Assembly (NCBI GenBank): GCA_030619825.1
Contig: JAUXAS010000009.1
Location: 1 to 17,921, forward strand
DNA from: Hadesarchaea archaeon
GTDB lineage: Archaea > Hadarchaeota > Hadarchaeia > Hadarchaeales > Hadarchaeaceae
Reading direction: 5' to 3'
DNA length: 17,921 bases
A program made the translations under genes and the position numbers. Below the pieces are notes generated by a model. It was given only the letters and a program-made list of their open reading frames with translations, had not been told where the DNA came from and searched no databases. Each line of letters begins with the position of its first letter. Positions within the stretch are counted from its first letter, which is position 1. Positions 1 to 17,921 of the stretch are shown here, piece by piece.

Positions 1-624
1 AGCGGGGGCCTCAACCGCCCCAGTCCATGTCTCTATCAGCTGCCATCCGGCTGGGGCTTCAACCGTTCCGGTCCACGTTTCGATCAATTGCCATTCGGCT
101 GGGGCTTCAACGGCGCCGGTCCAAGTCTCAATGAGCTGCCATACAACAGGAGCTTCGACCGTCCCGGTCCATGTTTCGATGAGCTGCCATTCAGCGGGTG
201 CCTCGATCGTTCCCGTCCAAGTCTCGATGAGCTGCCATTCAGCGGGGGCTTCAACCGTCCCGGTCCATGTCTCTATCAGCTGCCATTCGGCAGGCGCCTC
301 GATCGTTCCCGTCCATGTTTCGATGAGTTGCCATACGACAGGCGCCTCAACGGTGCCAGTCCATGTCTCGATGAGTTGCCATACGACGGGAGCTTTGACC
401 GTGCCAGTCCATGTTTCAATCAATTGCCACGCAGCGGGTGCCTCAACCGTTCCTGTCCAGGTTTCGATGAGTTGCCATTCGGCAGGGGCACTAACGGTAC
501 CAGTCCATGTTTCGATGACCTGCCAGACTACGGGAGCACTGATCGTTCCCGTCCACGACTCCACCACTTGCCATTCAACTGGTGCACTAACGGTGCCAGT
601 CCATGTTTCGATCAGGCCCCACGC
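1..624 (-). repeat. 13 tandem 48-bp (16-aa) coding repeats, consensus PAEWQLIETWTGTVEA
   Basis: Period-48 recurrence of ccatgt(t/c)tcgat...tgcca on the + strand, with many synonymous differences between units. Continues off the left edge. Confidence 0.95.
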
Positions 625-2499
625 ACCCACCACCACCTCGAAAGTCCACGTGTTCTCGGACCAGTTGTCGCCTTGGGCGTTGCGCGCGCAGACCTTCCAG
701 TAGTAGTTGTCCGGCGGCAGCTCAGTCGTCGGGGTGAAGGAATTATCGCCGATTATCGTGTTGTCTATCGCGTTTTCCCCATCCGCGAAGTTCGGATCGT
801 TGTCGACCACCAGCCTGTGGTTCTCCGCGTTCGTCCCGTTCTCCCACTCGAAGTAAGGGGTGTTGTCGTAGGTCTTGGTAGCGTTCTCGGGCAGGTAGAG
901 CACGGGCTTGCCGGGTGGTACGGCAGAAGGGGCTACGTCAAGAGAAGTGTTATCGACCCAAGCAAACACCTGATTAGTCTCATTGGGGTTTTCCAAGTCC
1001 ATCAAAAACCGAAACTCATAAGTCCCACTTTCATCGAAATACGAAGAAACATCCGTAGGACCAACAGATGTCCAATCAATATCTCCTGTCTGAGTATCCT
1101 CCCAAATTCTCACCGCATTGACCCAATCGCCACCACCACTCGGCTTTAATATTTCTGCTGCTACCGTCTGTGTTACGGGCCCCACCACAGTTGTGTGTGA
1201 TTTCTTCCACCACAAACTAAGCTTGACGGTATCGGTCGAGTTTATCGTCGTGGAAATGGTCTGGGTCGCGGTTCCGGTCTTTGCGTTGTTCCTCTTCGCA
1301 TCCGTCTCTGTCTCGATGGAGCCAGCCGTATCCTGATATGTCGCGCCATCGTAAACGGTAACATCCAAAGTCCAGCCGTCCGCATTGTTGGTGAAGCTCG
1401 GGTTCGTGAGATACTCGCTTGGGTCAGCAACGATAACCCTCCAGTCATCACCGATCGCGCTTCCCCCCCGATAGATCAGCTCAGAACGGAAGTAGTACTT
1501 GGTCGGCGGTAAGGTTCGTTGTGGAGATCTGAGTACATAGGATCTAGAAACGGAATCACTGACCGCGCCAACGTCCCACTCTATCTTGTTGTAATCTTCA
1601 TCGTGAATGCTGACGATCCCTCCATTCGCGTCGGTCACGGTCCAATCGCTCGGGAAGTAATCAGCTAGGGTCGCGTTGTCCACCTGGCTTGAAACGGTCG
1701 CGGTGATCGTCATGTTCACGGGGGAGAGAGGTGGCACTTTGTGCTGACCTACCCTGTCTCCGGATAATCGCCTATCGAACGTTACCTCAATGACAACTTG
1801 GTTATCCGTGGCCTGATTCTCGAGTATAACTCCCGTCCAAATCTCGACGGGTTGCCAAGCAGCTTGGGCTCCAACGAACCCAGTCCAAGTCTCAATGATA
1901 ACATGAGTTTCCGATATTTGGTTATCGATGGGTTGATTCTCAGGTACAACTTGGTTCTCGGGCACAACTTGGTTATCGGCTATCTGGTTATCTGGTACAA
2001 TTTGGTTATCAGCTATTTGATTATCGGTGGGCTGATTCTCGGGTGCAACTTGGTTATCGGGGGACTGATTCTCAGGTACAACTTGGTTATCGGCTATCTG
2101 GTTATCGGTGGGCTGATTCTCGGGCACAGCTTGGCTATCGGTTATTTGATTATCAGTGGGCTGATTCTCAGGTACAACTTGGTTCTCGGGGGGCTGATTC
2201 TCGAGCACAGCTTGGTTATCGGTTATCTGGTTATCGGGTACAACTTGGTTATCAGTTATTTGGTTATCAAGAGGCTGATCCCCAGATATTTGGTTATCCG
2301 TGACCGCCGCTTGGTAATCCGTTAGCTGGTTCTCCACTATCTCATTCTCCACAAGTTGGGCCCCAGCGTCTTGCGTGCTGGTAATTATGGCCGCTACGGG
2401 CGGGTTGAGGTGGAGAACCACAAACATGAATAGCACTACTACCGCACCTGCCCTCTGCCTCAAGCTCGGCTTCGCCCAGCTCCCTAGCTCACTACCCAC
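1..2499 (-). CDS. Large secreted/cell-surface repeat protein, 3'-truncated by the window edge (>=833 aa). Order: signal/TM segment, [D/E]NQ repeat region, DUF11/Ig-like domain, CBM-like beta-sandwich, FN3-like domain, 16-aa Trp repeats
   Basis: Not in the ORF track because its stop lies outside the window. Manual translation shows no stop from 2499 to 1. N-terminus (GTG 2499; alternatives 2508, 2463) is MGSELGSWAKPSLRQRAGAVVVLFMFVVLHLNPPVAA. FN3-like segment PGKPVLYLPENAT...TPYFEW...YYWKVCARNAQGDNWSENTWTF. Start overlaps the stop of the upstream wHTH gene. Domain names are by motif resemblance. Confidence 0.9.
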   Translation of the reverse strand, partial: MGSELGSWAKPSLRQRAGAVVVLFMFVVLHLNPPVAAIITSTQDAGAQLVENEIVENQLTDYQAAVTDNQISGDQPLDNQITDNQVVPDNQITDNQAVLENQPPENQVVPENQPTDNQITDSQAVPENQPTDNQIADNQVVPENQSPDNQVAPENQPTDNQIADNQIVPDNQIADNQVVPENQVVPENQPIDNQISETHVIIETWTGFVGAQAAWQPVEIWTGVILENQATDNQVVIEVTFDRRLSGDRVGQHKVPPLSPVNMTITATVSSQVDNATLADYFPSDWTVTDANGGIVSIHDEDYNKIEWDVGAVSDSVSRSYVLRSPQRTLPPTKYYFRSELIYRGGSAIGDDWRVIVADPSEYLTNPSFTNNADGWTLDVTVYDGATYQDTAGSIETETDAKRNNAKTGTATQTISTTINSTDTVKLSLWWKKSHTTVVGPVTQTVAAEILKPSGGGDWVNAVRIWEDTQTGDIDWTSVGPTDVSSYFDESGTYEFRFLMDLENPNETNQVFAWVDNTSLDVAPSAVPPGKPVLYLPENATKTYDNTPYFEWENGTNAENHRLVVDNDPNFADGENAIDNTIIGDNSFTPTTELPPDNYYWKVCARNAQGDNWSENTWTFEVVVGAWGLIETWTGTVSAPVEWQVVESWTGTISAPVVWQVIETWTGTVSAPAEWQLIETWTGTVEAPAAWQLIETWTGTVKAPVVWQLIETWTGTVEAPVVWQLIETWTGTIEAPAEWQLIETWTGTVEAPAEWQLIETWTGTIEAPAEWQLIETWTGTVEAPVVWQLIETWTGAVEAPAEWQLIETWTGTVEAPAGWQLIETWTGAVEAPA
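1798..2352 (-). repeat. About 28 coding 5/6-aa repeats ending in [D/E]NQ (ITDNQ, PTDNQ, VVPENQ)
   Basis: ttggttatc / ctgattctc recur every 15-18 bp. Translation includes VVPENQ PTDNQ ITDSQ AVPENQ PTDNQ IADNQ. Confidence 0.95.
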
Positions 2500-2809
2500 C
2501 GAGCTCACTCTCCCTAGTTGTGACGGGTTGCCGGGAAACAAGGCTCTCAACACTTACCTCATTGCCAGCCTCCCTCAGCAGGCCCGTGAAGTACCTGATC
2601 CCGCTTGCGGTGAGCTTGCAGAGCTTTCGGGGCCGCCCTCGGATGAAACGGGGTTCCAGCTCGACCTTGATGAACCCCAAAAGCTCGAAACGCTTGAATA
2701 ATCGCGAAATTTTCCAAGAAGGGAGCCCCGTGGATAGGCAGAGATCGGTCTGACTAATCCTACCGTTTGAAAGGAGCTCCCTTCCTAGTGTACAGACAGG
2801 CGATTCCAT
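2492..2809 (-). CDS. Winged helix-turn-helix transcriptional regulator (MarR/ArsR-like)
   Basis: ISQTDLCLSTGLPSWKISRLFKRFELLGFIKVE...GRPRKLCKLTASG is an HTH plus GRP wing. ATG 2809 is preceded by GGTGG. The track start at 2848 is possible. Confidence 0.8.
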   Translation of the reverse strand: MESPVCTLGRELLSNGRISQTDLCLSTGLPSWKISRLFKRFELLGFIKVELEPRFIRGRPRKLCKLTASGIRYFTGLLREAGNEVSVESLVSRQPVTTRESELGG

Positions 2810-7055: not shown

Positions 7056-7179
7056 TGGTGCCGGGGGCGGGGATCGAACCCGCGAACCTCAGGATTTCTC
7101 ACATCATCTCGTGATCAGCACTCACAACCGACGATCAGGTTATGAGTCCTGCGCTCTAACCAGGCTGAGCTACCCCGGC
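7056..7179 (-). tRNA. tRNA-Met(CAT), elongator type, with 45-nt intron at 37/38 (7096-7140) and encoded CCA
   Basis: GCCGGGG acceptor, GCTC/GAGC D-stem, CAGGA-CTCATA^A-TCCTG anticodon arm, GCGGG-TTCGATC-CCCGC T-arm, ACCA end. BHB central helix CTCA/TGAG. Confidence 0.95.
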
Positions 7180-7330
7180 AAGTTAGAAATCTGCGCCCTC
7201 AATTTTAACTTTAACGTCGCGCGAGTGATAAACGTTTGACATGCTTCGCCGCCTCGACCACTTCACACCTTCACTCGACTGCGCTACAAGTTTTTAAATA
7301 ACCCAACCTATATTGAAGAATGGTGAACTC

Positions 7331-7861
7331 TTGAAGCGCATCGTTTCAGCGCGGGACGCGATGACCGGGAAAGTTCTGACGGCGGCCCCGAACACCACGG
7401 TCGCCAAAGCGGCAAAGCTCATGGCCGAGCGGGGGGTTGGAAGCATCATTGTCGTGAAAAGCAAAAAGCCCGTTGGAATCCTGACCGAGCGTGACCTACT
7501 CATGAAAGTCGTGAGCCTGAACCTGATGCCCAGCAAGGTCAGGGTCGGCAAGATCATGTCGTCTCCCATACAGACGATCGGCCCCGACGCGGATATCACC
7601 GAGGCCGCGCGGATAATGGCCCGCAGCAAAATCCGACGTTTGCCCGTGGTCGAGCGCGGGGGCCTCATAGGCATCCTCACCGCGAGCGACATCACCGCGA
7701 TCTCCCCTGAGCTCATTGGTGTCGTGACAAGTCCCGAAGTGCCAGCACGCGAGGAAATCGAGCAGAGCGTCTGTGAAGTCTGCGGCGAGGTTACGACTGC
7801 CCTCCACGAAGTTAACGGCATGTGGGTCTGTGAGCACTGCCGCGACACGACGGGAGGGTAG
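7331..7861 (+). CDS. CBS-pair protein with C-terminal Zn ribbon (CEVC...CEHC)
   Basis: Two CBS domains (GILTERD, IRRLPVV..GILTASD). TTG 7331 follows GGTGA. TATA TTTTTAAATA at 7291-7300. Confidence 0.92.
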   Translation: MKRIVSARDAMTGKVLTAAPNTTVAKAAKLMAERGVGSIIVVKSKKPVGILTERDLLMKVVSLNLMPSKVRVGKIMSSPIQTIGPDADITEAARIMARSKIRRLPVVERGGLIGILTASDITAISPELIGVVTSPEVPAREEIEQSVCEVCGEVTTALHEVNGMWVCEHCRDTTGG

Positions 7862-7869
7862 ATGTTGAA

Positions 7870-8685
7870 ATGGCATGCCGGGACTTGCTCATGCGAGCCA
7901 GCGTTAGCGACGTGATGCAACCCTGCTCTGTTTTCGTCAGCTCACACGATCTCGTCACTCGGGCTCGGGCGATCATGCGCTCGAGCGGCTTTCGAACCCT
8001 TCCCGTCATCGATGGAGGGCGGCTCGGGGGTATCATCACCGCCCGCCAGATTATTCGCATCACCTCAACCCGCTCCAACATCCCCGTCGCAGGTATCATG
8101 TTTCCACCCCGGCTCATCGCAACTCCCGCCAGCAACTTGGTCGAGCTCGCTAGGGATATGGTCAAGCTTGGAATCTCAAACGTACCCGTGGCCCAGAGCT
8201 ACGGCGATAAGACCGTGATCGGACTCATAAGGTTGGATGGCATCCTCAAAAAAATCGCGGGTGGGATGAAGTCGAAGCCCACGGTTGGTGACATCATGAC
8301 CCGAAATGTCGTAACCTGCGAGCAGGACGATGAAATATCTCACGCCTGGAGTACCATGGAAAAAAATCGCTACTCGGGTCTGCCCGTCACGCGCTACGAC
8401 AAGCAAAAACACAAGCTCGAGGTCATAGGTATGGTAACACGATCTGACATCATTCGCTCGGGAACAATCCGATTGGCGGGGGAATCTGTGAAAGGGGGGC
8501 GCCCACCCACCAAAGTGCGAAGCCTCATGCGCACCCCCGCGATAACTGCCACCTCAAACATGCCCGTCGCCGAAGCGATCGAAGTCATGCTCCGACGCAA
8601 CGTGGGCAGACTCCCGGTCATCGATGAGGGCAATCTCGAGGGGATAGTGAGCCGCTCCAATGTCATAAGAGCGGCATGTGGGTGA
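7870..8685 (+). CDS. CBS-domain protein (4 CBS)
   Basis: FRTLPVID, VGDIMTRNV, YSGLPV, VGRLPVID..GIVSRSN. Start may be ATG 7891. Confidence 0.92.
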   Translation: MACRDLLMRASVSDVMQPCSVFVSSHDLVTRARAIMRSSGFRTLPVIDGGRLGGIITARQIIRITSTRSNIPVAGIMFPPRLIATPASNLVELARDMVKLGISNVPVAQSYGDKTVIGLIRLDGILKKIAGGMKSKPTVGDIMTRNVVTCEQDDEISHAWSTMEKNRYSGLPVTRYDKQKHKLEVIGMVTRSDIIRSGTIRLAGESVKGGRPPTKVRSLMRTPAITATSNMPVAEAIEVMLRRNVGRLPVIDEGNLEGIVSRSNVIRAACG

Positions 8686-8689
8686 TGGG

Positions 8690-9589
8690 ATGCGAAGATT
8701 TCCCCACTACAAGTCCATTAAGCGTGGGCCGCTGGCTTTCGAGTCGAAACTCCACCGGGAGGAAGGGAACATCATGCCCCTTGCGCGAAAAACCGTGATA
8801 ACGGTCCCACCGACGACGCGGATAAAAGATGCAGCTGAGCTTATGGTCGGGAGGGGCGTGCGAAGGTTACCCGTAGCGAGCCCCGGCACTAAAAAACTCA
8901 TGGGTATCGTCCGCACGCGCGACATCATCGACTTCTTGGGCGGGGGTGAAAAATTCAGGATTGTGCAGGAGAAGTTGAAGGGTAACTTTTTCGCCGCGGC
9001 TAACGAGCCCGTGCGAACGATCATGTCCGAGCGGGTGATCCACGGCACCACCGATATGTCGATAATCGATGCAGCGAGGCTCCTCCTCCAAACCGGTGTC
9101 GGCGGTGTGCCCATCCTCGACGGGCGCGAGCAGATTGCCGGTATCGTTTCAGAGCGTGATTTCATCTCCTACGTGCCAGCCACGACCGGAACCCCCGTGA
9201 GCTACCACATGACCCGCCACGTAATCACTGCGGAACCCGAGCTTCAAATTCGTGAAGCCGCTCGAAGGATGATTTCCCGAGGGGTTCGCCGTCTACCCGT
9301 GGTGCACGAACGAGAGCTGGTCGGCATCGTCACGAGCGTCGACATCCTTCAATACTTCGGGACGAGCAAGGTGTTCGAGCACATGCTCTCGCAACGCTTG
9401 GACGAGGCGATGTCTGTGGGCATTGAAGAGATAATGACCCGCGATGTGCTGACCGTGGCACCCGAGACCGACCTCGGCGAGGCCGCGGGGCTCATGCGCG
9501 AGCGGGGCTGCGGTTGCTTGCCCGTGATCGAGCGAGGTGAACTCAGGGGGATAATAACCGAGCGCGACATGCTGGAGTTGTTGATTTGA
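8690..9589 (+). CDS. CBS-domain protein (4 CBS), MJ1225-like adenylate sensor
   Basis: PPTTRIKDA..RRLPV..DIIDFLGGGEK..NFFAAANEPVRTIM resembles MJ1225 (recalled, not searched). ATG 8690 follows GGTGA. Confidence 0.92.
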   Translation: MRRFPHYKSIKRGPLAFESKLHREEGNIMPLARKTVITVPPTTRIKDAAELMVGRGVRRLPVASPGTKKLMGIVRTRDIIDFLGGGEKFRIVQEKLKGNFFAAANEPVRTIMSERVIHGTTDMSIIDAARLLLQTGVGGVPILDGREQIAGIVSERDFISYVPATTGTPVSYHMTRHVITAEPELQIREAARRMISRGVRRLPVVHERELVGIVTSVDILQYFGTSKVFEHMLSQRLDEAMSVGIEEIMTRDVLTVAPETDLGEAAGLMRERGCGCLPVIERGELRGIITERDMLELLI

Positions 9590-10443
9590 AGGTAGCCGAT
9601 GTAATGAGCTCGCCCGTGATGGCAATCACACCCACTGACCCAGTTGCGCGCGCGAAGAATTTGATGCTCCGCTACAGGGTCAAGCGCCTCGTGGTCATCG
9701 ACCGGGGTAAGCCGACCGGCGTCGTCTCGATGCGCGACCTCGCCGAACGCTTGGGCAGGGGCACATCAACTTGGCGCCACCGCCCGATCGACCACATCCC
9801 GGTGGCGCGAGTGATGAGCAAGGGTCTTGTGGGCGTGGCGCCCGGGACCGACTTGGGAAAGGCCGCCAAACTCATGCTCCGCCATGGGATAAGCAGCCTC
9901 GTCGTGCTCGATGGGAAGAAGCTCGCGGGCATTGTGACCAAAACTGACCTGACGAGATACTTCGCTAAGCAACTCGGGGGGCGCGCTAAAGTCAGGGAGC
10001 TCATGAGTACCGACATCGTAACGGTCGACCGAATGCACTCGTTGGCGCATGTGGTCGAGCTCATGGGAAAACACGGGATAAGCCGTGTGATTGTCGCTAA
10101 CGGCAAGAAACCCATCGGCATCGTAACTGAGAGAGATGTCGCCTTGGCCCAACTGGAGAAGCCGGCGAAGGGGATTGGGCGGCGAAGGGTTCGCTATACC
10201 CGAAAAGCAGAACGAGCCGACCGACCCCGCTATCGCTACGTGAAGTACGTCGCCTTGCTGACCGCCGATGACGTGATGAAGCCAGGGTTGCTGACCATCG
10301 GAGGTGAGGAAGATGTTGCCCGCGCGGCGAGCCTGATGCTCGAGCACGGGATAAGCGGGCTTTCCGTGGTTGAGGATGAACAGTTGGTCGGCATCCTGAC
10401 CAAGACCGACCTCGCGAAGGGTGTCGCCAAGCTAGGTGTCTGA
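9586..10443 (+). CDS. CBS-domain protein (4 CBS) with a basic insertion
   Basis: MKVADVMSSPV, GIVTKTDL, GIVTERD, GILTKTDL. TTGA overlap with the previous gene. Confidence 0.92.
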   Translation: MKVADVMSSPVMAITPTDPVARAKNLMLRYRVKRLVVIDRGKPTGVVSMRDLAERLGRGTSTWRHRPIDHIPVARVMSKGLVGVAPGTDLGKAAKLMLRHGISSLVVLDGKKLAGIVTKTDLTRYFAKQLGGRAKVRELMSTDIVTVDRMHSLAHVVELMGKHGISRVIVANGKKPIGIVTERDVALAQLEKPAKGIGRRRVRYTRKAERADRPRYRYVKYVALLTADDVMKPGLLTIGGEEDVARAASLMLEHGISGLSVVEDEQLVGILTKTDLAKGVAKLGV

Positions 10444-11238
10444 ATGCGTGTGAACCAAATCATGAGCTCGCCAGTCGTGACACTGGACAAGGACCAGCCC
10501 CTATCGAACGCAATCGACCTTATGCAACGGAATGAGATTTCTCGCCTCGTGGTGCTTCAGACGGGCAAAATCGTGGGCATGATCACCGAGAAGGATGTAG
10601 CGCGCGAACTTGGGTCGAGTACCGCCTACCGCTTGCCCCCGGGGCGGATGCACGTTTCGAACGTGATGGCCTCGAACCCGATTACGGTTGCCCCCGACGT
10701 CATGGCAAAGCGTGTGGCGGAGATCATGCTCGACCACGACGTGAGCGGGCTACCGGTGGTCGAAGGTGAAAATCTCACGGGGATCGTGACAAAGCTCGAC
10801 TTCGCGAAGGTGTGCTCTGGGTACGAGGATGTCTACGTGGGGCAGGTGATGCAGGCTAGCCCGAGGACCATCTCACCCAGCGATCGGGTCATCCACGCCC
10901 GCCGACTGTTGTTCGACGAGGATTTGATCGGGCTTCCCGTGGTTGAAGGAGACAAGCTCGTCGGGATCGTGACCATGCGAGACGTGGCGATGAATTTGGC
11001 CGCCTTTCAGAAGGTCGTTCCGGATCGGTACAAGAGCGAGCGCATCCGAAACTTGCTCGTCGAGGACATCATGACCCAACCAGCCACGACGACGCGAACC
11101 GACGCCAGGCTCTCCAAGGTCTCGCGGCTGATGCTCGAGCGGCGATTCTCCGGCCTTCCCGTGCTGAACCTAGAGGGAGAGCTGGTGGGGCTGCTGACGA
11201 AGACCCAGCTCACCCAGGTAGCGCGGGAGCGACTTTAA
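10444..11238 (+). CDS. CBS-domain protein (4 CBS)
   Basis: MRVNQIMSSPV, GMITEKD, VSGLPVV, FSGLPV. Abuts the previous stop. Confidence 0.92.
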   Translation: MRVNQIMSSPVVTLDKDQPLSNAIDLMQRNEISRLVVLQTGKIVGMITEKDVARELGSSTAYRLPPGRMHVSNVMASNPITVAPDVMAKRVAEIMLDHDVSGLPVVEGENLTGIVTKLDFAKVCSGYEDVYVGQVMQASPRTISPSDRVIHARRLLFDEDLIGLPVVEGDKLVGIVTMRDVAMNLAAFQKVVPDRYKSERIRNLLVEDIMTQPATTTRTDARLSKVSRLMLERRFSGLPVLNLEGELVGLLTKTQLTQVARERL

Positions 11239-11276: not shown

Positions 11277-11368
11277 GCGGCCGTGGTCCAGCCTGGTTAG
11301 GACTCAGGCTTCCCATGCGGTTTCGGGAAAAGCCTGCTGCGCGGGTTCGAATCCCGCCGGCCGCACCA
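11277..11368 (+). tRNA. tRNA-Gly(CCC) with 15-nt intron at 37/38 (11316-11330) and encoded CCA
   Basis: GCGGCCG/CGGCCGC acceptor, GTCC/GGAC D-stem, CAGGC-TTCCCA^A-GCCTG, GCGGG-TTCGAAT-CCCGC, ACCA. Relaxed BHB/BHL helix TTCC/GGGA. Confidence 0.95.
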
Positions 11369-11496
11369 CAAAAATTATTCTAACCATCCAGCACTCGCTG
11401 CTAACGATCTTGGTCATGGAAGTGTTAGGTACCACATGTAAAAAAATTTTTAATTATGTGTGCCACCTAACTTATTCCAAACAATTGTTTTAGACT

Positions 11497-12327
11497 TCAC
11501 CGCCGCCTTCGGAAAGCCGAGAGCAGCAAGAGGAAGAAAATCAACGAGAAGAAAGACGACCCCCCGAAAAACGCCCCGCCCCCATCGCTCGTGGATGCCA
11601 CATAGGACGCTCCTACAGCAACAAGAATATTTTCCTCTATTTCGTGTGCTTCCTCCTCTGTTATCTCGTACGCGAGGAGGTCGGAGCGCATGAGCTTGGA
11701 GGGGGTCCACCCGAGCGGGTTCGTTCGTCCCGTAGCCTCAGCCCACACCCAACCGCCCTCGCCCTTGAAGTTCCAGTAGGTGTTCGCCCCCGGGTAGTCG
11801 GGCAGGTGAACGAGCGCTGCGGCGTGCTCTGGGGCAAGCACCACGGCCGACCGGAGGCCCGCCGCGCGGAACATCACCGCGAGCAAGACGGCGTAGTCCT
11901 CGCAATCGCCGCGCGAAAAACCTTGACGTTTGATCTCCTCCGCAACTTCGTCTGCATTGCGGGCAAACTCATCGTGGCCGAACTGGATTGCGTCGGATGT
12001 GTAGGTCACGTGATCTCGAGCATAGCTGAAGATTCGCTCCGCGCGCTCATTCCGATCGGGGTACCGTCCCTTGAAATTCTCGCCGATCGCCCACGCCTCG
12101 CTCTTCAGCTCCCCAAGGCTTTCGAACGCGATTGCAGGGCGGAAGGTCGAGTCTTTAACTTGGAAAAATCCATCTTTCTCCCCCCAGCATCGGGTCCGGT
12201 AGACGTCCCAGTCGTCGTATTCCTCCCCGCCGCTCTTGTAGAAGCCGCTCGAGGGGCTTGCGAGGCAGGGACCCGCTGAGGCAAGCGAAGTGAGTAGCAG
12301 GAGCCAAGCGAGCGCGAGCTTTTTCAC
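11497..12327 (-). CDS. Secreted transglutaminase-like cysteine protease with C-terminal membrane anchor
   Basis: Signal peptide MKKLALAWLLLL; GDCEDYA (Cys), PEHAA (His), WAEAT; C-terminus GGGAFFGG-TM-RRRR. Confidence 0.88.
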   Translation of the reverse strand: MKKLALAWLLLLTSLASAGPCLASPSSGFYKSGGEEYDDWDVYRTRCWGEKDGFFQVKDSTFRPAIAFESLGELKSEAWAIGENFKGRYPDRNERAERIFSYARDHVTYTSDAIQFGHDEFARNADEVAEEIKRQGFSRGDCEDYAVLLAVMFRAAGLRSAVVLAPEHAAALVHLPDYPGANTYWNFKGEGGWVWAEATGRTNPLGWTPSKLMRSDLLAYEITEEEAHEIEENILVAVGASYVASTSDGGGAFFGGSSFFSLIFFLLLLSAFRRRR

Positions 12328-12336
12328 TCACAACAC

Positions 12337-12792
12337 CTAGAAGGCAGCTGCGAAAGCGGCGTGGGTGATAAGCCCGAGGAAGGCGAAGTAGCCGAAGACG
12401 TAGAGCCCTGTCCCAATGGAGCTTTCGCGGAGGCTGATGAAGGGTATCTTGGGGGTCAGCCGGTCGAGGAGGTTGAACATCCCGACGGCGAGGAATAAGC
12501 TAATCACGAAGGCGACGGAGATCAACCCAAGCCTCCGCATGATCGAGTCCAGGACCACCAGTCCCCCGGGGAGTGTGGTCACGGCGCCGTGAATCACCAG
12601 CCCGAGGTAAATAAGGAATCCCGAGATGAACAGGCCCACCGCGCGAGGGTCCTTCCCTATCAGCTCCCGCTGGTGGATTTTAGGAGTCAAAGCATCGAGC
12701 ACCCGTAGCCCCAGCCAACCCAGGAAAAAGCATATCAGCGTGAAGAAGACTACCTTAACGACCCAGACACCCACGAGCTCCCAGAATTCCAC
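12337..12792 (-). CDS. Four-TM membrane protein, duplicated DUF350-like halves
   Basis: Internal repeat LDALTPKI...AVGLFISGF / LDRLTPKI...GTGLYVFGY. Confidence 0.7.
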   Translation of the reverse strand: MEFWELVGVWVVKVVFFTLICFFLGWLGLRVLDALTPKIHQRELIGKDPRAVGLFISGFLIYLGLVIHGAVTTLPGGLVVLDSIMRRLGLISVAFVISLFLAVGMFNLLDRLTPKIPFISLRESSIGTGLYVFGYFAFLGLITHAAFAAAF

Positions 12793-12886
12793 TCCGACAC
12801 CAACCTCATTGTGTTAGGAAACAATAAAAGTTTGCTAGCTGCTCGCGGATAATTGCCAACGGTCGAATTCTGCCAGGTGCAACGCT

Positions 12887-12931
12887 TTTTCCCCTTTATA
12901 AAAAACCTCCACCCAAAGCCTCGGCGGGATG
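12887..12931 (+). repeat. 45-bp TATA+leader repeat, copy 1 (promoter of the 12933 gene)
   Basis: 40/45 ungapped identity to 15205-15249, including the exact 22-mer CACCCAAAGCCTCGGCGGGATG and TTATAAA. Confidence 0.9.
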
Positions 12932-12932
12932 A

Positions 12933-13238
12933 ATGGGGAGAACGCTTCACTATCGGACGAAGGAGGCCGTAACCGCTGAAGAGTTCGAGCAAATCCGAAG
13001 GATCATGAAAAAATACAACGCGGGGCACGAATGGGCCTACGAAAACATCAAACTATGGAAGGACGCAAGCGGCGCGCTCTGGGGATTCACAAAGGTGAAC
13101 GACAATGACCGGGACAGAAAATTAGTAATTCAAGCGATAAAGGAGATGTCCAAGACAACGCCGCGGCTGACTTGGATGTTTTACGATGAGGGCGGGCTGG
13201 AGAAGGGCAAGTGGGTGAAATTAAGAGGTGGAAAATAG
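12933..13238 (+). CDS. Hypothetical protein (101 aa; MGRTLHY...GFTKV...DEG)
   Basis: Clean ORF with TATA about 30 bp upstream and globular composition. Confidence 0.75.
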   Translation: MGRTLHYRTKEAVTAEEFEQIRRIMKKYNAGHEWAYENIKLWKDASGALWGFTKVNDNDRDRKLVIQAIKEMSKTTPRLTWMFYDEGGLEKGKWVKLRGGK

Positions 13239-13304
13239 GGCCATTTGGTTTATTTCTCTTGACAACAAAAATGAAGTGCCCGTTAGCGGCGCGAGGTCTC
13301 AAAA

Positions 13305-14072
13305 TTGAGGGTGCTGACGAAACCTAGCTTCGAGGATGCGAAGGAACTCGTGAGCGCAGCGATAAGGAACAAACAACTTACCATGCTCGTCGGTTCCTGT
13401 GTGGTCAACTACGTGGGAAGGGCTGGCTCAGTGCTCCCCGAAGGCGAGCGTGTGGTGATGCTCAAACCAGATGGGACCCTGCTCGTCCACCAAATGAAGA
13501 AGCGGGAGCCCGTGAACTGGAACCCGCCCGGCTGCGAGGCGAGCGCGCGCTTGGGCGAGGAAGGCCTGCAACTCATCTCCAAGCGGGAGCGTCCGAAAGA
13601 GAAGCTTTTAGTTCTGTTCAGGAGCCTGAAGCTGGCCGCATCCTTCGAGCTCGTCGATCAGGAGGAGCTCTACCTCGTGGGGTCCGAGCGAGACTTGATC
13701 AACATAGCTTTCAACGAGCCAAGCTTGATCGAGCCGGGTTTCAAGCCACTCGAGCGGGAGAAACAGACGAAGTACGGCATGATTGACCTCTACGGCGTCG
13801 ACCGGGATGGAAATGGCATGGCGATAGAATTCAAGCGCGGGAGGGCCGAGCTCGCTGGGGTGAGTCAACTCAAGCGCTACGTGGAGGAGCTGAGCGAGAG
13901 GCTCGGAAAGCGCATCAGGGGCATCTTGGTGGCGCCTTCGATAACTTCGAGCGCCCTGAAGCTCCTAAAGGAAACACAGCTGGAGTACGTGCAGATCGGG
14001 AGGCCACCCACCTACACCTTTGAGAGGGTCGTGACCCGGGAGCGGGGGCAGAAGGGAATAAGTGAGTTCTAA
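13305..14072 (+). CDS. nucS: Endonuclease NucS/EndoMS
   Basis: CVVNYVGRA, KPDGTLLVH, PVNWNPP, IDLYGVD..IEFKR, QLKRY, RGILVAP; C-terminal PIP-like QKGISEF. Confidence 0.95.
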   Translation: MRVLTKPSFEDAKELVSAAIRNKQLTMLVGSCVVNYVGRAGSVLPEGERVVMLKPDGTLLVHQMKKREPVNWNPPGCEASARLGEEGLQLISKRERPKEKLLVLFRSLKLAASFELVDQEELYLVGSERDLINIAFNEPSLIEPGFKPLEREKQTKYGMIDLYGVDRDGNGMAIEFKRGRAELAGVSQLKRYVEELSERLGKRIRGILVAPSITSSALKLLKETQLEYVQIGRPPTYTFERVVTRERGQKGISEF

Positions 14073-14121
14073 GCTTAAGACGGATTAAAGTCCGCGATCC
14101 ACCACATTTCTTCCATAAGTT

Positions 14122-14152
14122 TTTTATATCACAAAGTGGACTAATTAGTTCA
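14122..14152 (+). promoter_or_regulatory. TATA box plus palindromic operator TGGACTAATTAGTTCA for the MNT-HEPN operon
   Basis: TTTTATAT at 14122-14129; perfect 10-bp palindrome ACTAATTAGT at 14140-14149, just before the ATG. Confidence 0.6.
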
Positions 14153-14766
14153 TGATGCGGACTAAAATAACCGATGTTCTCTCTCGGGTTCTAGGCTCGG
14201 AGAAAAGGAGGAAAATTGCCAGGGCCATTTTAAATTACCCTGAGAAAGATTGGAGCGTCCCGGAGCTCGAAAAAATTACCGGGGTCCCCCATGCGACGGT
14301 TTGGCGAACGGTCTTAGATATGGAAAATGCGAAGATCTTAAGATCGAGATTGTTGGGGAAGAAAACGAAAATATTTAACTTGATAGAGGGCTCGCCTTAT
14401 CTTCCAGCGTTGAAGTCTGCTGTCGCTGCTGAGACCTTCCCCCTTCGAGAGGTGGCCAAAGAATTAGCGCGGGAAGTTTCAAAACTTAAGGCGGTTCGAT
14501 CCTGTATTCTTTATGGCTCGGTTGCCCGCGGGGCCGCAACGCTGGAGAGCGATGTGGATGTGTTGATCTTGGCCAAGAGATCGACGAAAGCATTGGAAGC
14601 ACAAATCACAAAAATCGCTAGCGACGTGAGCCACCGCACAGGCTGTTCAATTGTGCCTACTGTGTTGTCCGATTCCAAGTTTGATGAGATGGCGAAAACA
14701 AAACATGAGTTTGCCGCCGCGGTTAAAAAAGAGGGAATCGTGCTGTTTAGGCGGGACAAAGGATGA
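14152..14766 (+). CDS. HTH-fused minimal nucleotidyltransferase (MNT) antitoxin
   Basis: WSVPELEKITGVPHATVWR HTH; LYGSVARG...SDVDVLI (GSx10DxD). Confidence 0.9.
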   Translation: MMRTKITDVLSRVLGSEKRRKIARAILNYPEKDWSVPELEKITGVPHATVWRTVLDMENAKILRSRLLGKKTKIFNLIEGSPYLPALKSAVAAETFPLREVAKELAREVSKLKAVRSCILYGSVARGAATLESDVDVLILAKRSTKALEAQITKIASDVSHRTGCSIVPTVLSDSKFDEMAKTKHEFAAAVKKEGIVLFRRDKG

Positions 14767-15161
14767 TTCACTCGGATCACCTAGAACAGGCAAAACTCTG
14801 GCTATCGGCGGCGGAGTACGTGTTTGGGCTGCAGATCGAGACGAGGAATAAGTACACGGTTGCATCAGCATTGGCTATTCATGCTGCGATCAAAGCGAAC
14901 GACTCGTTAACCACGAGGTTCTTGGGGCGGGTAGCCAAGCGACACGAAGACGCTCCGGCACTTTTCCTCGAATTGGTGAGAAAGAACTACCTGCCGAGTG
15001 AAGAAGCCCGCCACCGGGACACCTTAGCTGAGGCGATAAGAGAAAAATCCGCGGCCGATTACCACGCTGAGTTCTTCTCCAAAAAGGATGCGGAGAGCCT
15101 AATCAGAAAAATCAGGAAGTTTATCGAGATGGCCGAGAGGTATCAAAAACCACCGCGATAG
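14763..15161 (+). CDS. HEPN-domain toxin
   Basis: Helical 132 aa; LEQAKLWL..A, HAAIKA, RHED, REKSAADY. ATGA overlap with the MNT gene. Confidence 0.82.
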   Translation: MIHSDHLEQAKLWLSAAEYVFGLQIETRNKYTVASALAIHAAIKANDSLTTRFLGRVAKRHEDAPALFLELVRKNYLPSEEARHRDTLAEAIREKSAADYHAEFFSKKDAESLIRKIRKFIEMAERYQKPPR

Positions 15162-15163
15162 AC

Positions 15164-15175
15164 CGGGTTCGAATC
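15164..15175 (+). repeat. 12-bp exact copy of the tRNA-Gly T-arm (CGGGTTCGAATC), 2 bp after the HEPN stop
   Basis: Identical to 11342-11353. Confidence 0.6.
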
Positions 15176-15204
15176 TTCAGATAGCGCCACTTTTCCCCCC
15201 TAAC

Positions 15205-15249
15205 TTTTCCCTCTTATAAACAACCCACACCCAAAGCCTCGGCGGGATG
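15205..15249 (+). repeat. 45-bp TATA+leader repeat, copy 2
   Basis: 40/45 identity to 12887-12931. Confidence 0.9.
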
Positions 15250-15315
15250 GTCATGGAAAACCCACAAGCAAAGGGCTTATTACTTGGTGGGACAATAAGT
15301 GGGATGGGTGAAGAT

Positions 15316-15549
15316 ATGGGAGAAACCACGGTGGACGACAAGTGGAGGATAACCGTGCCCCCCGAGGTTCGGGAAGGGCTCCGGAAGGGCCAGACCCTCC
15401 AAGTGGAAAGGGAGGGCGAGCGCATAATCATCAAAGCGAGTATCGACATCGAAAAATTCGAACGGGAGCTGAAGGGTTGCATCAAGGGTTCTAAAATTCC
15501 TCCTGAAAAGCTGAAGGAGATATGGGGCATCCGCCATGCGCATGATTGA
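15316..15549 (+). CDS. vapB: AbrB/MazE-fold antitoxin (VapB)
   Basis: TTVDDKWRITVPPEVRE..L..G..L..E..I.I. ATG 15316 follows GGTGA. Confidence 0.88.
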   Translation: MGETTVDDKWRITVPPEVREGLRKGQTLQVEREGERIIIKASIDIEKFERELKGCIKGSKIPPEKLKEIWGIRHAHD

Positions 15550-15949
15550 TTCGAACATCTGGGCCTATTACCTCGACGCCGACGCCCCAGAACACAAATT
15601 CGTCGTTCCCGAGGTGAGGAAGGCCCTCCAGGAAGGGGTTTTGATCAACACCGTGGTTGCGATGGAGGTCGCTCACTTTCTGGTCAAAAATCTCGGGCCG
15701 GTGCTCGGGAAGGAAAAATTTGATACCTTTATGGGATTTCCGCTCGCCGTTGACGAACTGGACTTGGAGCTGGTGCGAGCTGCTATCGGCGAGCTGTGCA
15801 AGTACTCCCACCTCGGCATCGGCGGGAGGGACGCCACGCTGCTCGCGTCGATGCGAAGAAAGCAGGTCGACAGGATCATGACCCACGACGAGGCTTTGAA
15901 GAGGGTGCCCGACCTAAAGGCGATCGACCCCATCAGGTTTAAATCCTGA
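15536..15949 (+). CDS. vapC: PIN-domain toxin VapC
   Basis: MIDSNI, VAMEV, GRDATLLA, IMTHD acidic PIN residues. Overlaps the antitoxin gene. Confidence 0.92.
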   Translation: MRMIDSNIWAYYLDADAPEHKFVVPEVRKALQEGVLINTVVAMEVAHFLVKNLGPVLGKEKFDTFMGFPLAVDELDLELVRAAIGELCKYSHLGIGGRDATLLASMRRKQVDRIMTHDEALKRVPDLKAIDPIRFKS

Positions 15950-16030
15950 AGTTTCGCTGCCGATTTTCGTCGCCACCCCCACCACCACACGTTATAAAAC
16001 GTTGCCCCCTAATGCCTGGGTTCAATAACA

Positions 16031-16056
16031 TTTTTATAGTTCCTATATAGAAACTA
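16031..16056 (+). promoter_or_regulatory. TATA box plus 20-bp palindromic operator TAGTTCCTATATAGAAACTA
   Basis: 18/20 dyad symmetry at 16037-16056, directly downstream of TTTTTATA and 14 bp before ATG 16071. Confidence 0.7.
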
Positions 16057-16070
16057 ATAATAGTGATGAC

Positions 16071-16478
16071 ATGCCTAGAGGCCCAAGGAAGATTTTGCTC
16101 GTAGTATTTGACGCTCAGCCCATCCGTGTGCTCGAAACCCTAGCCAAATCCTCGAAGTCCTTCACGGAGGTGCTCAAGGAAGCGGCGTTGCCAAAAGCCA
16201 CCTTACACCGAACCCTAGTGGGGCTCGCAAGGTACAAATTTGTGAAAAAGGTGGACAACTGGTATGCGATAACTTCAGATGGGGAGCTACTGCTAAAATC
16301 CTTCAGGCGCCTGCAGGCGAGAAGCATGCTCAAAATAACCGATGATGGCTTGCGGCGAGTTCTTGAGCAGGTCGAGCGAACCCTGCGGATGGAACGATCA
16401 GGGTTCAGCAGAGTCGAGCAGTTCGAGAGTGTTCAGGAGGCGGTCGAGAGTGTCGAGGTTATTAGCGTGTCTGCGTAA
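16071..16478 (+). CDS. wHTH protein, probable antitoxin/autoregulator
   Basis: KSFTEVLKEAALPKATLHRTLVGL..FVKK...YAITSDG. Confidence 0.8.
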   Translation: MPRGPRKILLVVFDAQPIRVLETLAKSSKSFTEVLKEAALPKATLHRTLVGLARYKFVKKVDNWYAITSDGELLLKSFRRLQARSMLKITDDGLRRVLEQVERTLRMERSGFSRVEQFESVQEAVESVEVISVSA

Positions 16479-17022
16479 ACTGGTGGAGGTTTTCGAGGAG
16501 TGCGAGGTCCCGTACGCGGTTCTAGGCGGGCTGGCGATCCCGGCGTACGGAGTCCCCCGCAGCACGGTCGACGTGGACATCGGGCTCGCGGTCGGCGAGG
16601 AGGGGGAAACCCAAGAGTTCATACAGAAATTGGGGGCCCGGAAGGTGGTCGCGTTCGAGAAGCCGAAACCCGAGTACACCATGGTCTACATGTCGGACCG
16701 CGAGAACTTGGTCGACGTGGAGCTGTGGTTCAAGCCCGATGGCATCACCTGGGATGAGGAGACCCTGCGAAGGCGGTGGAAGGTGGCGTTCAAAGTTGCA
16801 AAGAAGGGATTCGAGGCCTACATTTTGTCGCCGGAGGATTTCATCGTAAACAAGCTTGCCCGCAAGGACCGAAGCGCCCGGGACGAGGAGGATGTAGTGG
16901 GGGTGATGGCGAGCTCGAAGGGTAAAATTGACTGGAGGTACCTCGCTAGGCGGGCGAAGGGGGCGGGGGTGGAGGACCTCGTGCTGGAGCTCAGGGAGAA
17001 AGTTTCCTCGATCAAGCGGTGA
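16450..17022 (+). CDS. Pol-beta-superfamily nucleotidyltransferase (DUF6036/AbiEii/MenT-like), probable toxin
   Basis: YAVLGGLA..YGVPRSTVDVD and SPEDFIVNKL...RDEED motifs. GTG 16450 follows AGGAGG at 16435-16440. Confidence 0.82.
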   Translation: MSRLLACLRKLVEVFEECEVPYAVLGGLAIPAYGVPRSTVDVDIGLAVGEEGETQEFIQKLGARKVVAFEKPKPEYTMVYMSDRENLVDVELWFKPDGITWDEETLRRRWKVAFKVAKKGFEAYILSPEDFIVNKLARKDRSARDEEDVVGVMASSKGKIDWRYLARRAKGAGVEDLVLELREKVSSIKR

Positions 17023-17047
17023 GCCGTGATTTAGGTAAAAAAAGCCA

Positions 17048-17135
17048 TTAATCACCGCAAGGTCAATCAAACATCGGGTGCCCATGGACCTCGAGCGCAA
17101 GCTCTCCCGGATCCCCAGCTACTCGCGCGAGCTGG
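17048..17135 (+). repeat. 88-bp direct repeat, copy 1 (promoter/RBS plus 5' end of a gene)
   Basis: Matches 17835-17921 with 5 differences (4 substitutions, 1 indel). Confidence 0.95.
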
Positions 17136-17206
17136 GCCTGGACCTGCGAAAGCCCCGGGATCGGTTCAAGTGGTTCCTGGCATCGATGCTTTTCGCCAAA
17201 CGCTAA
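17084..17206 (+). pseudogene. Truncated 40-codon 5' fragment of an HhH-GPD-like uncharacterised protein
   Basis: MDLERKLSRIPSYSRELGLDLRKPRDRFKWFLASMLFAKR*. Resembles the N-terminus of the YSxELGIDL..FKWFLASxLFGxRI family (recalled). Stops 9 bp before the tRNA-like repeat. Confidence 0.7.
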
Positions 17207-17215
17207 TCCAGCTCC

Positions 17216-17247
17216 CTGCGCGGGTTCGAATCCCACCAGCCGCACTA
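17216..17247 (+). repeat. att-like copy of the tRNA-Gly 3' end
   Basis: CTGCGCGGGTTCGAATCCCACCAGCCGCACTA vs 11337-11368: 29/32, all three changes are transitions. Confidence 0.92.
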
Positions 17248-17493
17248 TCAACGATGAACCCGCCGCCGCTTTTCAACGAGTCTCAAAAATTCTTCTCTGG
17301 TGAGTTTGGCGTCCCTTATTATCTTCCTCAACAGACCGCGCCCGATATCTTCCCCCTTGTGAACGGGAACTACGGTTGCCCTTCCATCGGAATGTTTGAG
17401 GAAAACATGGCTTCCTCTTTGCCTTGCCATTTCAAATCCTAACTTTTCTAGGGCCTTGATGACTCTCTCAGGAGAAACGGGCTTTAACTTCAT
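17248..17493 (-). CDS. hicA: HicA mRNA interferase toxin
   Basis: VIKALEKLGF..RQRGSHVFLKH..GRATVVPVH...GLLRKII. Confidence 0.95.
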   Translation of the reverse strand: MKLKPVSPERVIKALEKLGFEMARQRGSHVFLKHSDGRATVVPVHKGEDIGRGLLRKIIRDAKLTREEFLRLVEKRRRVHR

Positions 17494-17724
17494 TCAAACG
17501 GATACCTCTACCACTTGCATACCGATAAATTCCGTAGTGACATCAGCGGCCCCTTTTTCGACCTCTAGATAAAGTTTGATCGCTTCTTCAATACGTCTTC
17601 TCAGTTCATCCAAGGTTTTCGCTTGCGTGTGGCATCCGGGTAACTCTGGCACGGAAGCCACATAGTAGCCGTCCTCATCCCTCTCCACGACAACGTTGAA
17701 TTTTTTCATCATCTTTTTTACCAT
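17494..17724 (-). CDS. hicB: HicB antitoxin (short form, no DNA-binding domain)
   Basis: VVERDEDGYYVASVPELPGCHTQAKTLDEL..IEEAIKLYLE. TATA on the minus strand at 17744-17752. Confidence 0.95.
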   Translation of the reverse strand: MVKKMMKKFNVVVERDEDGYYVASVPELPGCHTQAKTLDELRRRIEEAIKLYLEVEKGAADVTTEFIGMQVVEVSV

Positions 17725-17788
17725 ACTAATTTTACATTGTTCCTATTAAAAATCCATCGAATTCATGTAAGTTAAGCTCAAAATTAGT

Positions 17789-17811
17789 GTTCGAATCCTG
17801 CCGGCCGCACC
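17789..17811 (+). repeat. att-like copy of the tRNA-Gly 3' end
   Basis: GTTCGAATCCTGCCGGCCGCACC vs 11345-11367: 22/23. Confidence 0.92.
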
Positions 17812-17834
17812 CTTTGCCGCTTCCAACGTTGCTC

Positions 17835-17921
17835 TTAATCACCGCGACGTCAATCAAACATTGGTGCCCATGGAGCTCGAGCGCAAGCTCTCCCGGATCC
17901 CCAGCTACTCGCGCGAGCTGG
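17835..17921 (+). repeat. Direct repeat, copy 2 (runs off the window)
   Basis: Matches 17048-17135. Confidence 0.95.
17870..17921 (+). CDS. 5' end of the second (possibly intact) copy of the HhH-GPD-like gene
   Basis: MELERKLSRIPSYSREL..., GGTG RBS; truncated by the window edge. Confidence 0.6.
   Translation, partial: MELERKLSRIPSYSREL

Follow-up and report, generated by a model that had tools for sequence, protein, structure and literature searches.

How does a row of small gene modules lacking any integrase come to stand behind one tRNA gene? The question is raised by a 17,921-nucleotide stretch of DNA from Hadesarchaea archaeon (assembly GCA_030619825.1, contig JAUXAS010000009.1), called the window in what follows, which is the entire contig C76 of a genome of 0.99 Mb that is 89% complete. 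From position 11277 onwards it holds tRNA-Gly(CCC), copies of the end of that tRNA, which we call tails, and between them small modules that include toxin-antitoxin (TA) pairs. An earlier note on this DNA had described an integron-like array of TA cassettes, captured repeatedly at a single tRNA, in which decay of the repeat would record age. With a probability of roughly 0.6, we read the region as mini-islands that are not autonomous, were added in tandem with the help of visiting tyrosine integrases and were then eroded by deletion and homologous recombination. The evidence comes from the window and from its relatives; G-numbers denote the genomes compared (G000 being that of the window), X-numbers metagenome runs and L-numbers fetched loci. 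The compared genomes are metagenome-assembled genomes (MAGs), so misjoins are possible.

Copies of the tRNA-Gly(CCC) end

The tRNA and the positions at which its end recurs are the following.

11277..11368, + strand: tRNA-Gly(CCC), head of the array, with a 15-nt intron at 11316-11330
11369..11490, no strand: non-coding remnant and first variable junction, where G003, G013 and G011 hold extra units
12853..12884, + strand: weak tail (12861-12883 in the earlier note; 16/23, score 9), at chance level alone; G011 has an insert here
15164..15175, + strand: truncated tail of cassette A, 12/12, 2 bp past the HEPN stop at 15161, score 12
15972..15990, + strand: putative eroded tail position, from the tail found there in G010, on contig C18 of the same genome and on a contig of run X10
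17216..17247, + strand: tail, 29/32, score 26; site of an extra cassette in G003
17789..17811, + strand: tail, 22/23, score 21, closing the HicAB unit

The four copies that the earlier note had reported are present where it placed them and with the identities it gave. Their ungapped scores were compared with those obtained in 2 Mb of genome-matched order-3 Markov random sequence. The scores at 17216 and 17789 were never reached by chance, there being 0 matches per Mb at a score of at least 16. A score of 12, as at 15164, arises 17.5 times per Mb, or about 0.1 times in 6.5 kb, and this copy taken alone is suggestive, not significant; the score of 9 at 12861 is chance level by itself, since 178 matches per Mb already occur at a score of at least 10. 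Both weak copies are backed by the relatives, because these carry clearer tails at the same positions. The base-for-base homologue of the 15164 copy is a nearly complete tail in G024, G016, G018, G020, G048 and G010, and after the common HEPN stop the tail of each of these six leads into different DNA, while G000, G003 and G013 have a common deletion after 12 bases of it. At the 12861 position G011 holds an extra 1.2-kb ATPase module, with a decayed tail on its left and a clear one on its right. The proposal that tails mark the module junctions therefore stands for 17216 and 17789 beyond chance, and for 15164 and 12861 through the relatives, but not at the borders of three TA modules, where no tail is recognisable in the window at 14090-14110, about 15975 or 17023-17044. 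Positions 14090-14107 were considered as a fifth tail and dropped, the letters on the nucS side being native in G002, G006 and G008.

Similar fragments scattered independently of cassettes would have spoken against the tails. Raw counts of the 12-mer CCNGCCGCACYA are uninformative here, because a reversed-pattern control gave 64 matches, exceeding the real non-tRNA matches, and a positional test was taken instead. In 16 genomes (nine from other families excluded, and the remaining kin not independent), 11 of the 30 non-tRNA matches follow a Gly tRNA at a distance of no more than 11 kb downstream and share its strand, where chance would give at most 0.4 (P about 1e-13). Tails thus cluster behind Gly tRNAs and are not a genome-wide scatter. 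As in tandem tRNA islands, direct repeats of the tRNA 3' end surround foreign DNA and the tRNA is intact: it reads as Gly(CCC) after removal of its 15-nt intron, and an intron-less homologue exists in G020. The D-loop and anticodon-loop introns of the relatives' tRNA-Gly genes vary between genomes (L040, L041, L050, L036, L224 and others). In G002, the most complete relative, an inverted tRNA-Gly(GCC)-type tail lies 5.5 kb downstream of tRNA-Gly(CCC) (C1, about 557.5 kb; L036:12464).

Modules and their gain, loss and reordering in relatives

The modules and the boundaries that are not tails are given below.

11497..12792, - strand: transglutaminase-like gene and DUF350 gene; a tail precedes the block in G002, G013 and a metagenome contig
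12887..12931, + strand: 45-bp TATA-to-start promoter motif, copy 1, also a module boundary; 11 copies seen in the genome
12933..14072, + strand: open reading frame (ORF) of 101 aa without family, and nucS; accessory block
14090..14110, + strand: left boundary of the MNT-HEPN cassette, a deletion scar; relatives have a tail or tRNA here
14152..15161, + strand: winged helix-turn-helix (wHTH)-MNT and HEPN pair (cassette A), by Pfam; HEPN slightly below cut-off
15205..15249, + strand: 45-bp promoter motif, copy 2, at whose end G003 changes to another module
15304..15949, + strand: AbrB/MazE-type antitoxin and PIN (VapC-like) toxin, by Pfam
16071..17022, + strand: candidate for a fourth TA pair, made up of a wHTH and a nucleotidyltransferase gene
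17044..17205, + strand: 5' piece of a 202-aa gene without family match; full-length copy on contig C55 of the same genome
17248..17724, - strand: hicA and hicB, a 565-bp unit, by Pfam
17813..17921, + strand: left arm, then the beginning of a further HhH-like gene copy; the contig terminates in this repeat

The module order is not an assembly artefact, because single contigs from two studies cover 13292-17119 (run X1) and 14039-17119 (run X15, in which this organism reaches a word depth of about 170-fold). The cross-genome comparison that the earlier note had called for supports its reading here: relatives gain, lose and shuffle modules at the tails, and empty and filled sites with breakpoints at the repeats occur as in genomic islands, with some breakpoints elsewhere. 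Directly behind tRNA-Gly(CCC) there are extra units of 1.3 kb (G003), 3.2 kb (G013) and 10.2 kb (G011), each closed by a tail, and G003 and G013 resume the sequence of the window after that tail. A 2-kb insert behind the same tRNA in G001 (contig C19) has no tail. Internal tails are also breakpoints, because the additional 1.28-kb unit of G003 sits exactly at 17216.

Cassette A provides the largest series of junctions. Nine of its 14 left junctions start directly past an end in CACCA (or CACTA, CGCCA), and these nine follow six kinds of neighbour: tRNA-Gly(TCC), tRNA-Gly(CCC), the right end of an integrase element, two tail families and the tail of cassette B. The other five comprise three deletion scars (G000, G003 and contig C72 of G013), one junction without a tail in its 100 bases and one decayed tail. 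This last junction is in a MAG titled Methanobacteriota (L200:5850-7080), where the cassette has 90% protein identity and no adjacent tRNA, possibly the result of a transfer between lineages. Module order differs as well: G010 has AbrB-PIN, A and the HhH-like gene, G016 has tRNA, A, B and the HhH-like gene, and G006 places a nucleotidyltransferase pair ahead of AbrB-PIN. In G001, G047 and G059, HicAB modules 75-77% identical to that of the window are flanked by another tRNA on one side and by an end of that tRNA's type on the other, and a related module in G009 has no tails.

The cargo of the window is less uniform than had been proposed. Of the four TA pairs named by the earlier note, Pfam backs MNT-HEPN (HEPN as qualified above), AbrB-PIN and HicAB, but the wHTH and nucleotidyltransferase genes remain a candidate, with a best match to a solved structure at E=0.036 and no match in PADLOC. 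Nor is the array made of TA pairs throughout: in its first 2.7 kb the transglutaminase-like gene, DUF350, the 101-aa ORF and nucS are none of them TA genes, and nucS is accessory, being found with this query in 7 of 45 relatives. The suggestion that each pair has its own TATA box agrees with TATA-like boxes 28-40 nt ahead of all four, a count made without a shuffle control. The 45-bp motif has nine further sites, 79-91% alike, on contigs C33, C44, C47, C55, C60, C66, C78, C80 and C92. It has a near-palindrome ahead of the start and is found in front of TA genes, pilin-like genes, the nucS block and a tRNA; it may represent a regulon or a portable promoter.

The 202-aa gene is presumably HhH-like. 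Contigs C55 and C18 of the same genome hold more copies of it and a further MNT-HEPN pair, besides weak tails, restriction nucleases and a C5 methyltransferase. They probably continue the island of the window; the joins are putative, with a repeat at the end of C76.

Upstream of the array, five consecutive genes at 7313-11238 end just before tRNA-Gly, and the last of them is kept upstream of tRNA-Gly(CCC) family-wide; they look like putative CBS-domain proteins. A tRNA with CAT anticodon and a 45-nt intron lies at 7056-7179 on the minus strand and was overlooked by the tRNA tool, which was run without intron search. A big surface-protein-like ORF (1-2553, minus strand) is open at the contig end and contains two kinds of tandem peptide repeat, with no Pfam match above cut-off.

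Units, arms and traffic between tRNA genes

A census of 59 tRNA-Gly loci, partly picked through tail searches and thus biased so that its counts overstate array frequency, gave at least one tail by an automatic rule at 28 of them. From 37 distinct units found automatically, four were discarded by eye as chance matches. The 33 that remain have a median length of 1263 bp; six are gene-less or nearly so, and by our own count TA or Fic genes are present in 11, the remainder carrying enzymes, transporters and surface proteins. The modules were correctly described as integrase-less: there is no integrase inside the units of the window, and a tyrosine integrase occurs in one of the 33.

A conserved right arm of about 100 bp terminates 25 of the 33 units, and its match to the tRNA is confined to the last 12 bases. 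Within it, sites recur with an 11-bp period, 60, 71 and 82 nt before the end (36 matches in 21 arms, about 1.5 expected); they may be arm-type sites of an integrase. One conserved arm stands behind unrelated cargo in several genera. The periodic arm is not recognised at the window's own tails, which belong to other types. The idea that repeat decay records age fails, as units of higher rank do not have lower tail scores (rho 0.14, p 0.39, all 37 units kept) and the best copies in the window are those farthest from the tRNA. The likeness of a tail to the tRNA is set by the cassette family, not by age.

Tails also travel. A cassette with a GCC-type tail stands first behind tRNA-Gly(GCC) in G010 and retains the same tail inside the TCC array of G009. 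One ATP-cone cassette is present twice in G000 with one tail of its own, once in a tRNA-Leu array and once following tRNA-Gly(GCC), and has only CCGCACCA in common with its targets. Because both cassettes keep their tails at other tRNAs, we infer that most of the tail belongs to the cassette and that the exchange falls in the last 8-9 bases, a pattern that recombination between arms could mimic. The tRNA genes often end in CACTT, CACCT or CACAT, and the next tail ends in CACCA. Tails of the same kind occur at the tRNA-Leu loci of G000 (C64:52852-58804, C79:8616, C14:67486, C55:23769 and C66:5600), and capture at one tRNA gives way to capture at several: three Gly tRNAs, Leu and Val are all used.

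The exchange may reach beyond cassettes. A rhomboid block stands behind tRNA-Gly(GCC) in 11 genomes and behind tRNA-Gly(TCC) in G000 and G003, and a gene usually behind TCC is found behind GCC in G000 and behind CCC in G019. These backbone swaps (G000:C3:13337 and C66:4545, G003:C150, G019:C93), for which misjoins in MAGs are possible and two genomes concur, suggest rearrangements at the common tRNA end and accord with a crossover in its last bases. Loci were assigned in this comparison from the tRNA's 5' stem and the gene upstream, since D-loop introns upset the reading of the anticodon.

In the mechanism we propose, small non-autonomous units would have been added one behind another, by site-specific recombination, to form an island anchored at the tRNA. 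Each unit would consist of a left arm, cargo with its own promoter and a right arm with a terminal tRNA-like tail. It would travel as a circle, and its tail would recombine either with an older tail or with a tRNA ending in CCGCACCA, in the last 8-9 bases of the latter. The tRNA would thereby remain functional, and each insertion would leave a site that can be used again. A tyrosine integrase is the most likely enzyme; it would come with larger elements visiting the same tRNAs and act in trans, or in cis on neighbours. TA cargo probably aids the persistence of units, and later deletion and homologous recombination between other repeats would erode and scramble the array.

The mobilising enzyme, known systems and significance

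A candidate for such a visiting integrase is seen in G011, whose 10.2-kb element at tRNA-Gly(CCC) encodes a 417-aa tyrosine integrase that has intact catalytic motifs and ends at a 14-bp direct repeat, with inverted arm repeats on both sides of the core. Its left arm reappears behind tRNA-Leu in G000. The same element could be read differently. The modules might be decayed stumps of big integrase-bearing islands, resembling cis-mobilizable elements (CIMEs), and at most moved in cis with an intact neighbour. The G011 element stands intact directly ahead of cassette A, internal deletions are common, and this route is described in PMC5704250. The units carry no integration or transfer genes and retain both attachment (att) sites, as CIMEs do. 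Stumps are nevertheless unlikely: the same small units with the same two ends recur across ranks, loci and genera, 32 of the 33 lack an integrase fragment inside, and unrelated cargo is carried by one arm family. A large parent element for the small units was looked for and none was found.

Several observations weigh against accretion by a visiting integrase. The G011 integrase family is present in 15 of 65 genomes and G000 is not among them, an integrase linked to the arms of small cassettes was looked for and not found, and the array-bearing G010, G016, G018 and G020 (79-95% complete) have no PF00589 match. No circle junction, for which the earlier note had suggested a search, appeared among the joints listed, which come from contigs only. 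The end of the PIN module is tail-less in 5 of 7 other contigs compared, and DUF350 ends in G002 and G005 miss tails. One deletion lies inside cassette A with its breakpoint off the tails, and G003 (L109:6063-6296, contig C80) has lost hicA by internal deletion, the antitoxin alone remaining. Modules are likewise bounded by other repeats, namely HhH-like gene pieces and the 45-bp promoter motif.

In another reading, DNA was added and shuffled with no site-specific enzyme, by recombination (homologous or through microhomology) at short repeats such as tails, arms, the 45-bp promoter or parts of the HhH-like gene. In contig C30 of G010 (L106:2774-6963), modules including an AbiEi-AbiEii pair are separated not by tRNA tails but by the 3' end of the HhH-like gene, present in three copies; contig C55 of G000 begins with a 235-bp repeat of its interior; G003 and G048 have breakpoints on the 45-bp motif; and many array-bearing genomes have no detected tyrosine recombinase. 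Yet many tails match the tRNA over 8-12 bases only and still give junctions exact to the base, and the periodic arm sites are polarised and conserved, so that we regard an enzyme-free origin as improbable.

The orphan tyrosine recombinase that the earlier note had hoped to find did not emerge as the mover: no arms linkable to the array were found at the five other ORFs of this kind that G000 contains, or at its two fragments. A 433-aa tyrosine-recombinase-like ORF lies directly behind tRNA-Val(CAC) in G000 (C8:343-1644) and was missed by PF00589; contigs C22 and C40 of G000 hold integrases as well. Any PF00589 match occurs in 27 of 41 genomes, and no conserved tyrosine recombinase was found. 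G000, at its 89% completeness, gave no match to a serine resolvase, reverse transcriptase or IS110, and no IntI (best 58 bits against a cut-off of 265, in a broken fragment). Viral contigs searched with three att patterns and the G011 integrase yielded nothing, and the 23 metagenome stretches with the periodic arm contained no integrase by profile. A resident integron-style enzyme is not supported, because no integrase was found beside small-cassette arms, four array-bearing relatives show no PF00589 match and no IntI was found.

Tails of this size could also be target-site duplications left by a casposase (Cas1-solo) that inserts the units. Common ends are 12-14 bp, broken Cas1 pieces are present in G000 (C64:26.4-27.2 kb and C63:0.2-0.5 kb), and intact stand-alone Cas1 genes lie behind an HTH-like gene in G001 (L218:3709-4713, contig C8) and G048 (L219:1107-2135, contig C86). 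However, these two genes have no adjoining tails, tails sometimes mismatch the local tRNA, unlike duplications, no terminal inverted repeats were seen by eye at unit ends, and there is no Cas1 match in G010, G013, G016, G018, G019 or G020. The casposase, terminal inverted repeats and target-site duplication of a casposon are thus not found together here, and this origin is very improbable. The same must be said of a true integron or a cluster of attC sites lacking an integrase (CALIN). The small, TA-rich cassettes had suggested an integron-like array, and integrons are reported in 3-4% of Hadarchaeota genomes (10.1101/2022.02.06.479319), but there is neither IntI nor an attC-type R-box pair: RYYYAAC...GTTRRRY pairs number 0 in 11369-17921 against 1.07 in shuffles, by a heuristic scan and not a covariance model. 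Integron cassettes are co-oriented and mostly promoterless, whereas here both strands are used and genes have their own promoters.

Among known systems, tandem accretion of integrative and conjugative or mobilizable elements (ICEs, IMEs) at tRNA 3' ends, with att copies between them, integrase-less CIMEs and gene capture, is described in PMC5704250. The window resembles these in its tandem at one tRNA, the att copies between members and integrase-less members with both att sites; the published account makes CIMEs products of decay that are mobilised in cis, whereas the small units here are found intact at several tRNAs and in several genera, some without genes, and have arm families with varying cargo. 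Prochlorococcus tycheposon islands (10.1101/2020.12.28.424599) are likewise tRNA-proximal, with partial tRNAs between elements and older remnants. A tycheposon, though, carries an integrase of its own, with replication or packaging modules, and is bound to a single tRNA; here an integrase is absent from 32 of 33 units, units cross between tRNAs of Gly, Leu and Val type and internal tails are reused. The cryptic integrated elements of Thaumarchaeota (PMC6563490) are alike in archaeal tRNA targeting, tyrosine integrases, site-reuse arrays and TA cargo. They span 2.6-98 kb and are defined by an integrase, which the Hadarchaeota units of 0.1-4 kb lack; the G011 element fits that class. Integrons and CALINs, archaeal ones included (10.1101/2022.02.06.479319), share cargo with its own site per cassette, richness in TA and defence genes and shuffled order, but here there is no IntI, attI or attC, the site is a tRNA tail and cassettes face both ways with their own promoters. 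The pdif modules of Acinetobacter are recombinase-less, include TA pairs and are moved by a tyrosine recombinase encoded elsewhere; they use XerC/D sites and a conserved host enzyme, which has no counterpart among the tyrosine recombinases found here.

Tandem islands anchored at tRNAs are therefore already known, and the form seen here is unusually cassette-like, without the responsible enzyme nearby. Literature searches, with subscription journals outside their scope, listed no paper on such arrays in Hadarchaeota. What is added is the occurrence of the same cassettes in six genera in different order, the travel of tails from one tRNA to another along with their cassettes, chromosome arms that have changed places and, at the site itself, a candidate integrase. 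It is tempting to speculate, though we hold this as tentative and rather doubtful, that Hadarchaeota maintain a standing cassette exchange, in which the Gly or Leu acceptor end receives, tRNA-mimic tails are reusable, empty arm-plus-tail units gain cargo, and one recombinase shuffles loci and swaps chromosome arms, an equivalent of the integron built on tRNA ends.

Island finders that require an integrase beside a tRNA fragment would miss such units. The locus offers defined sites, arms and one candidate integrase for capture in trans, and the swapped backbones suggest that the same sites rearrange the chromosome. For an uncultivated subsurface archaeon of about 1 Mb with few recognisable mobile elements, such accretion may be a route by which TA, defence and metabolic genes are turned over.

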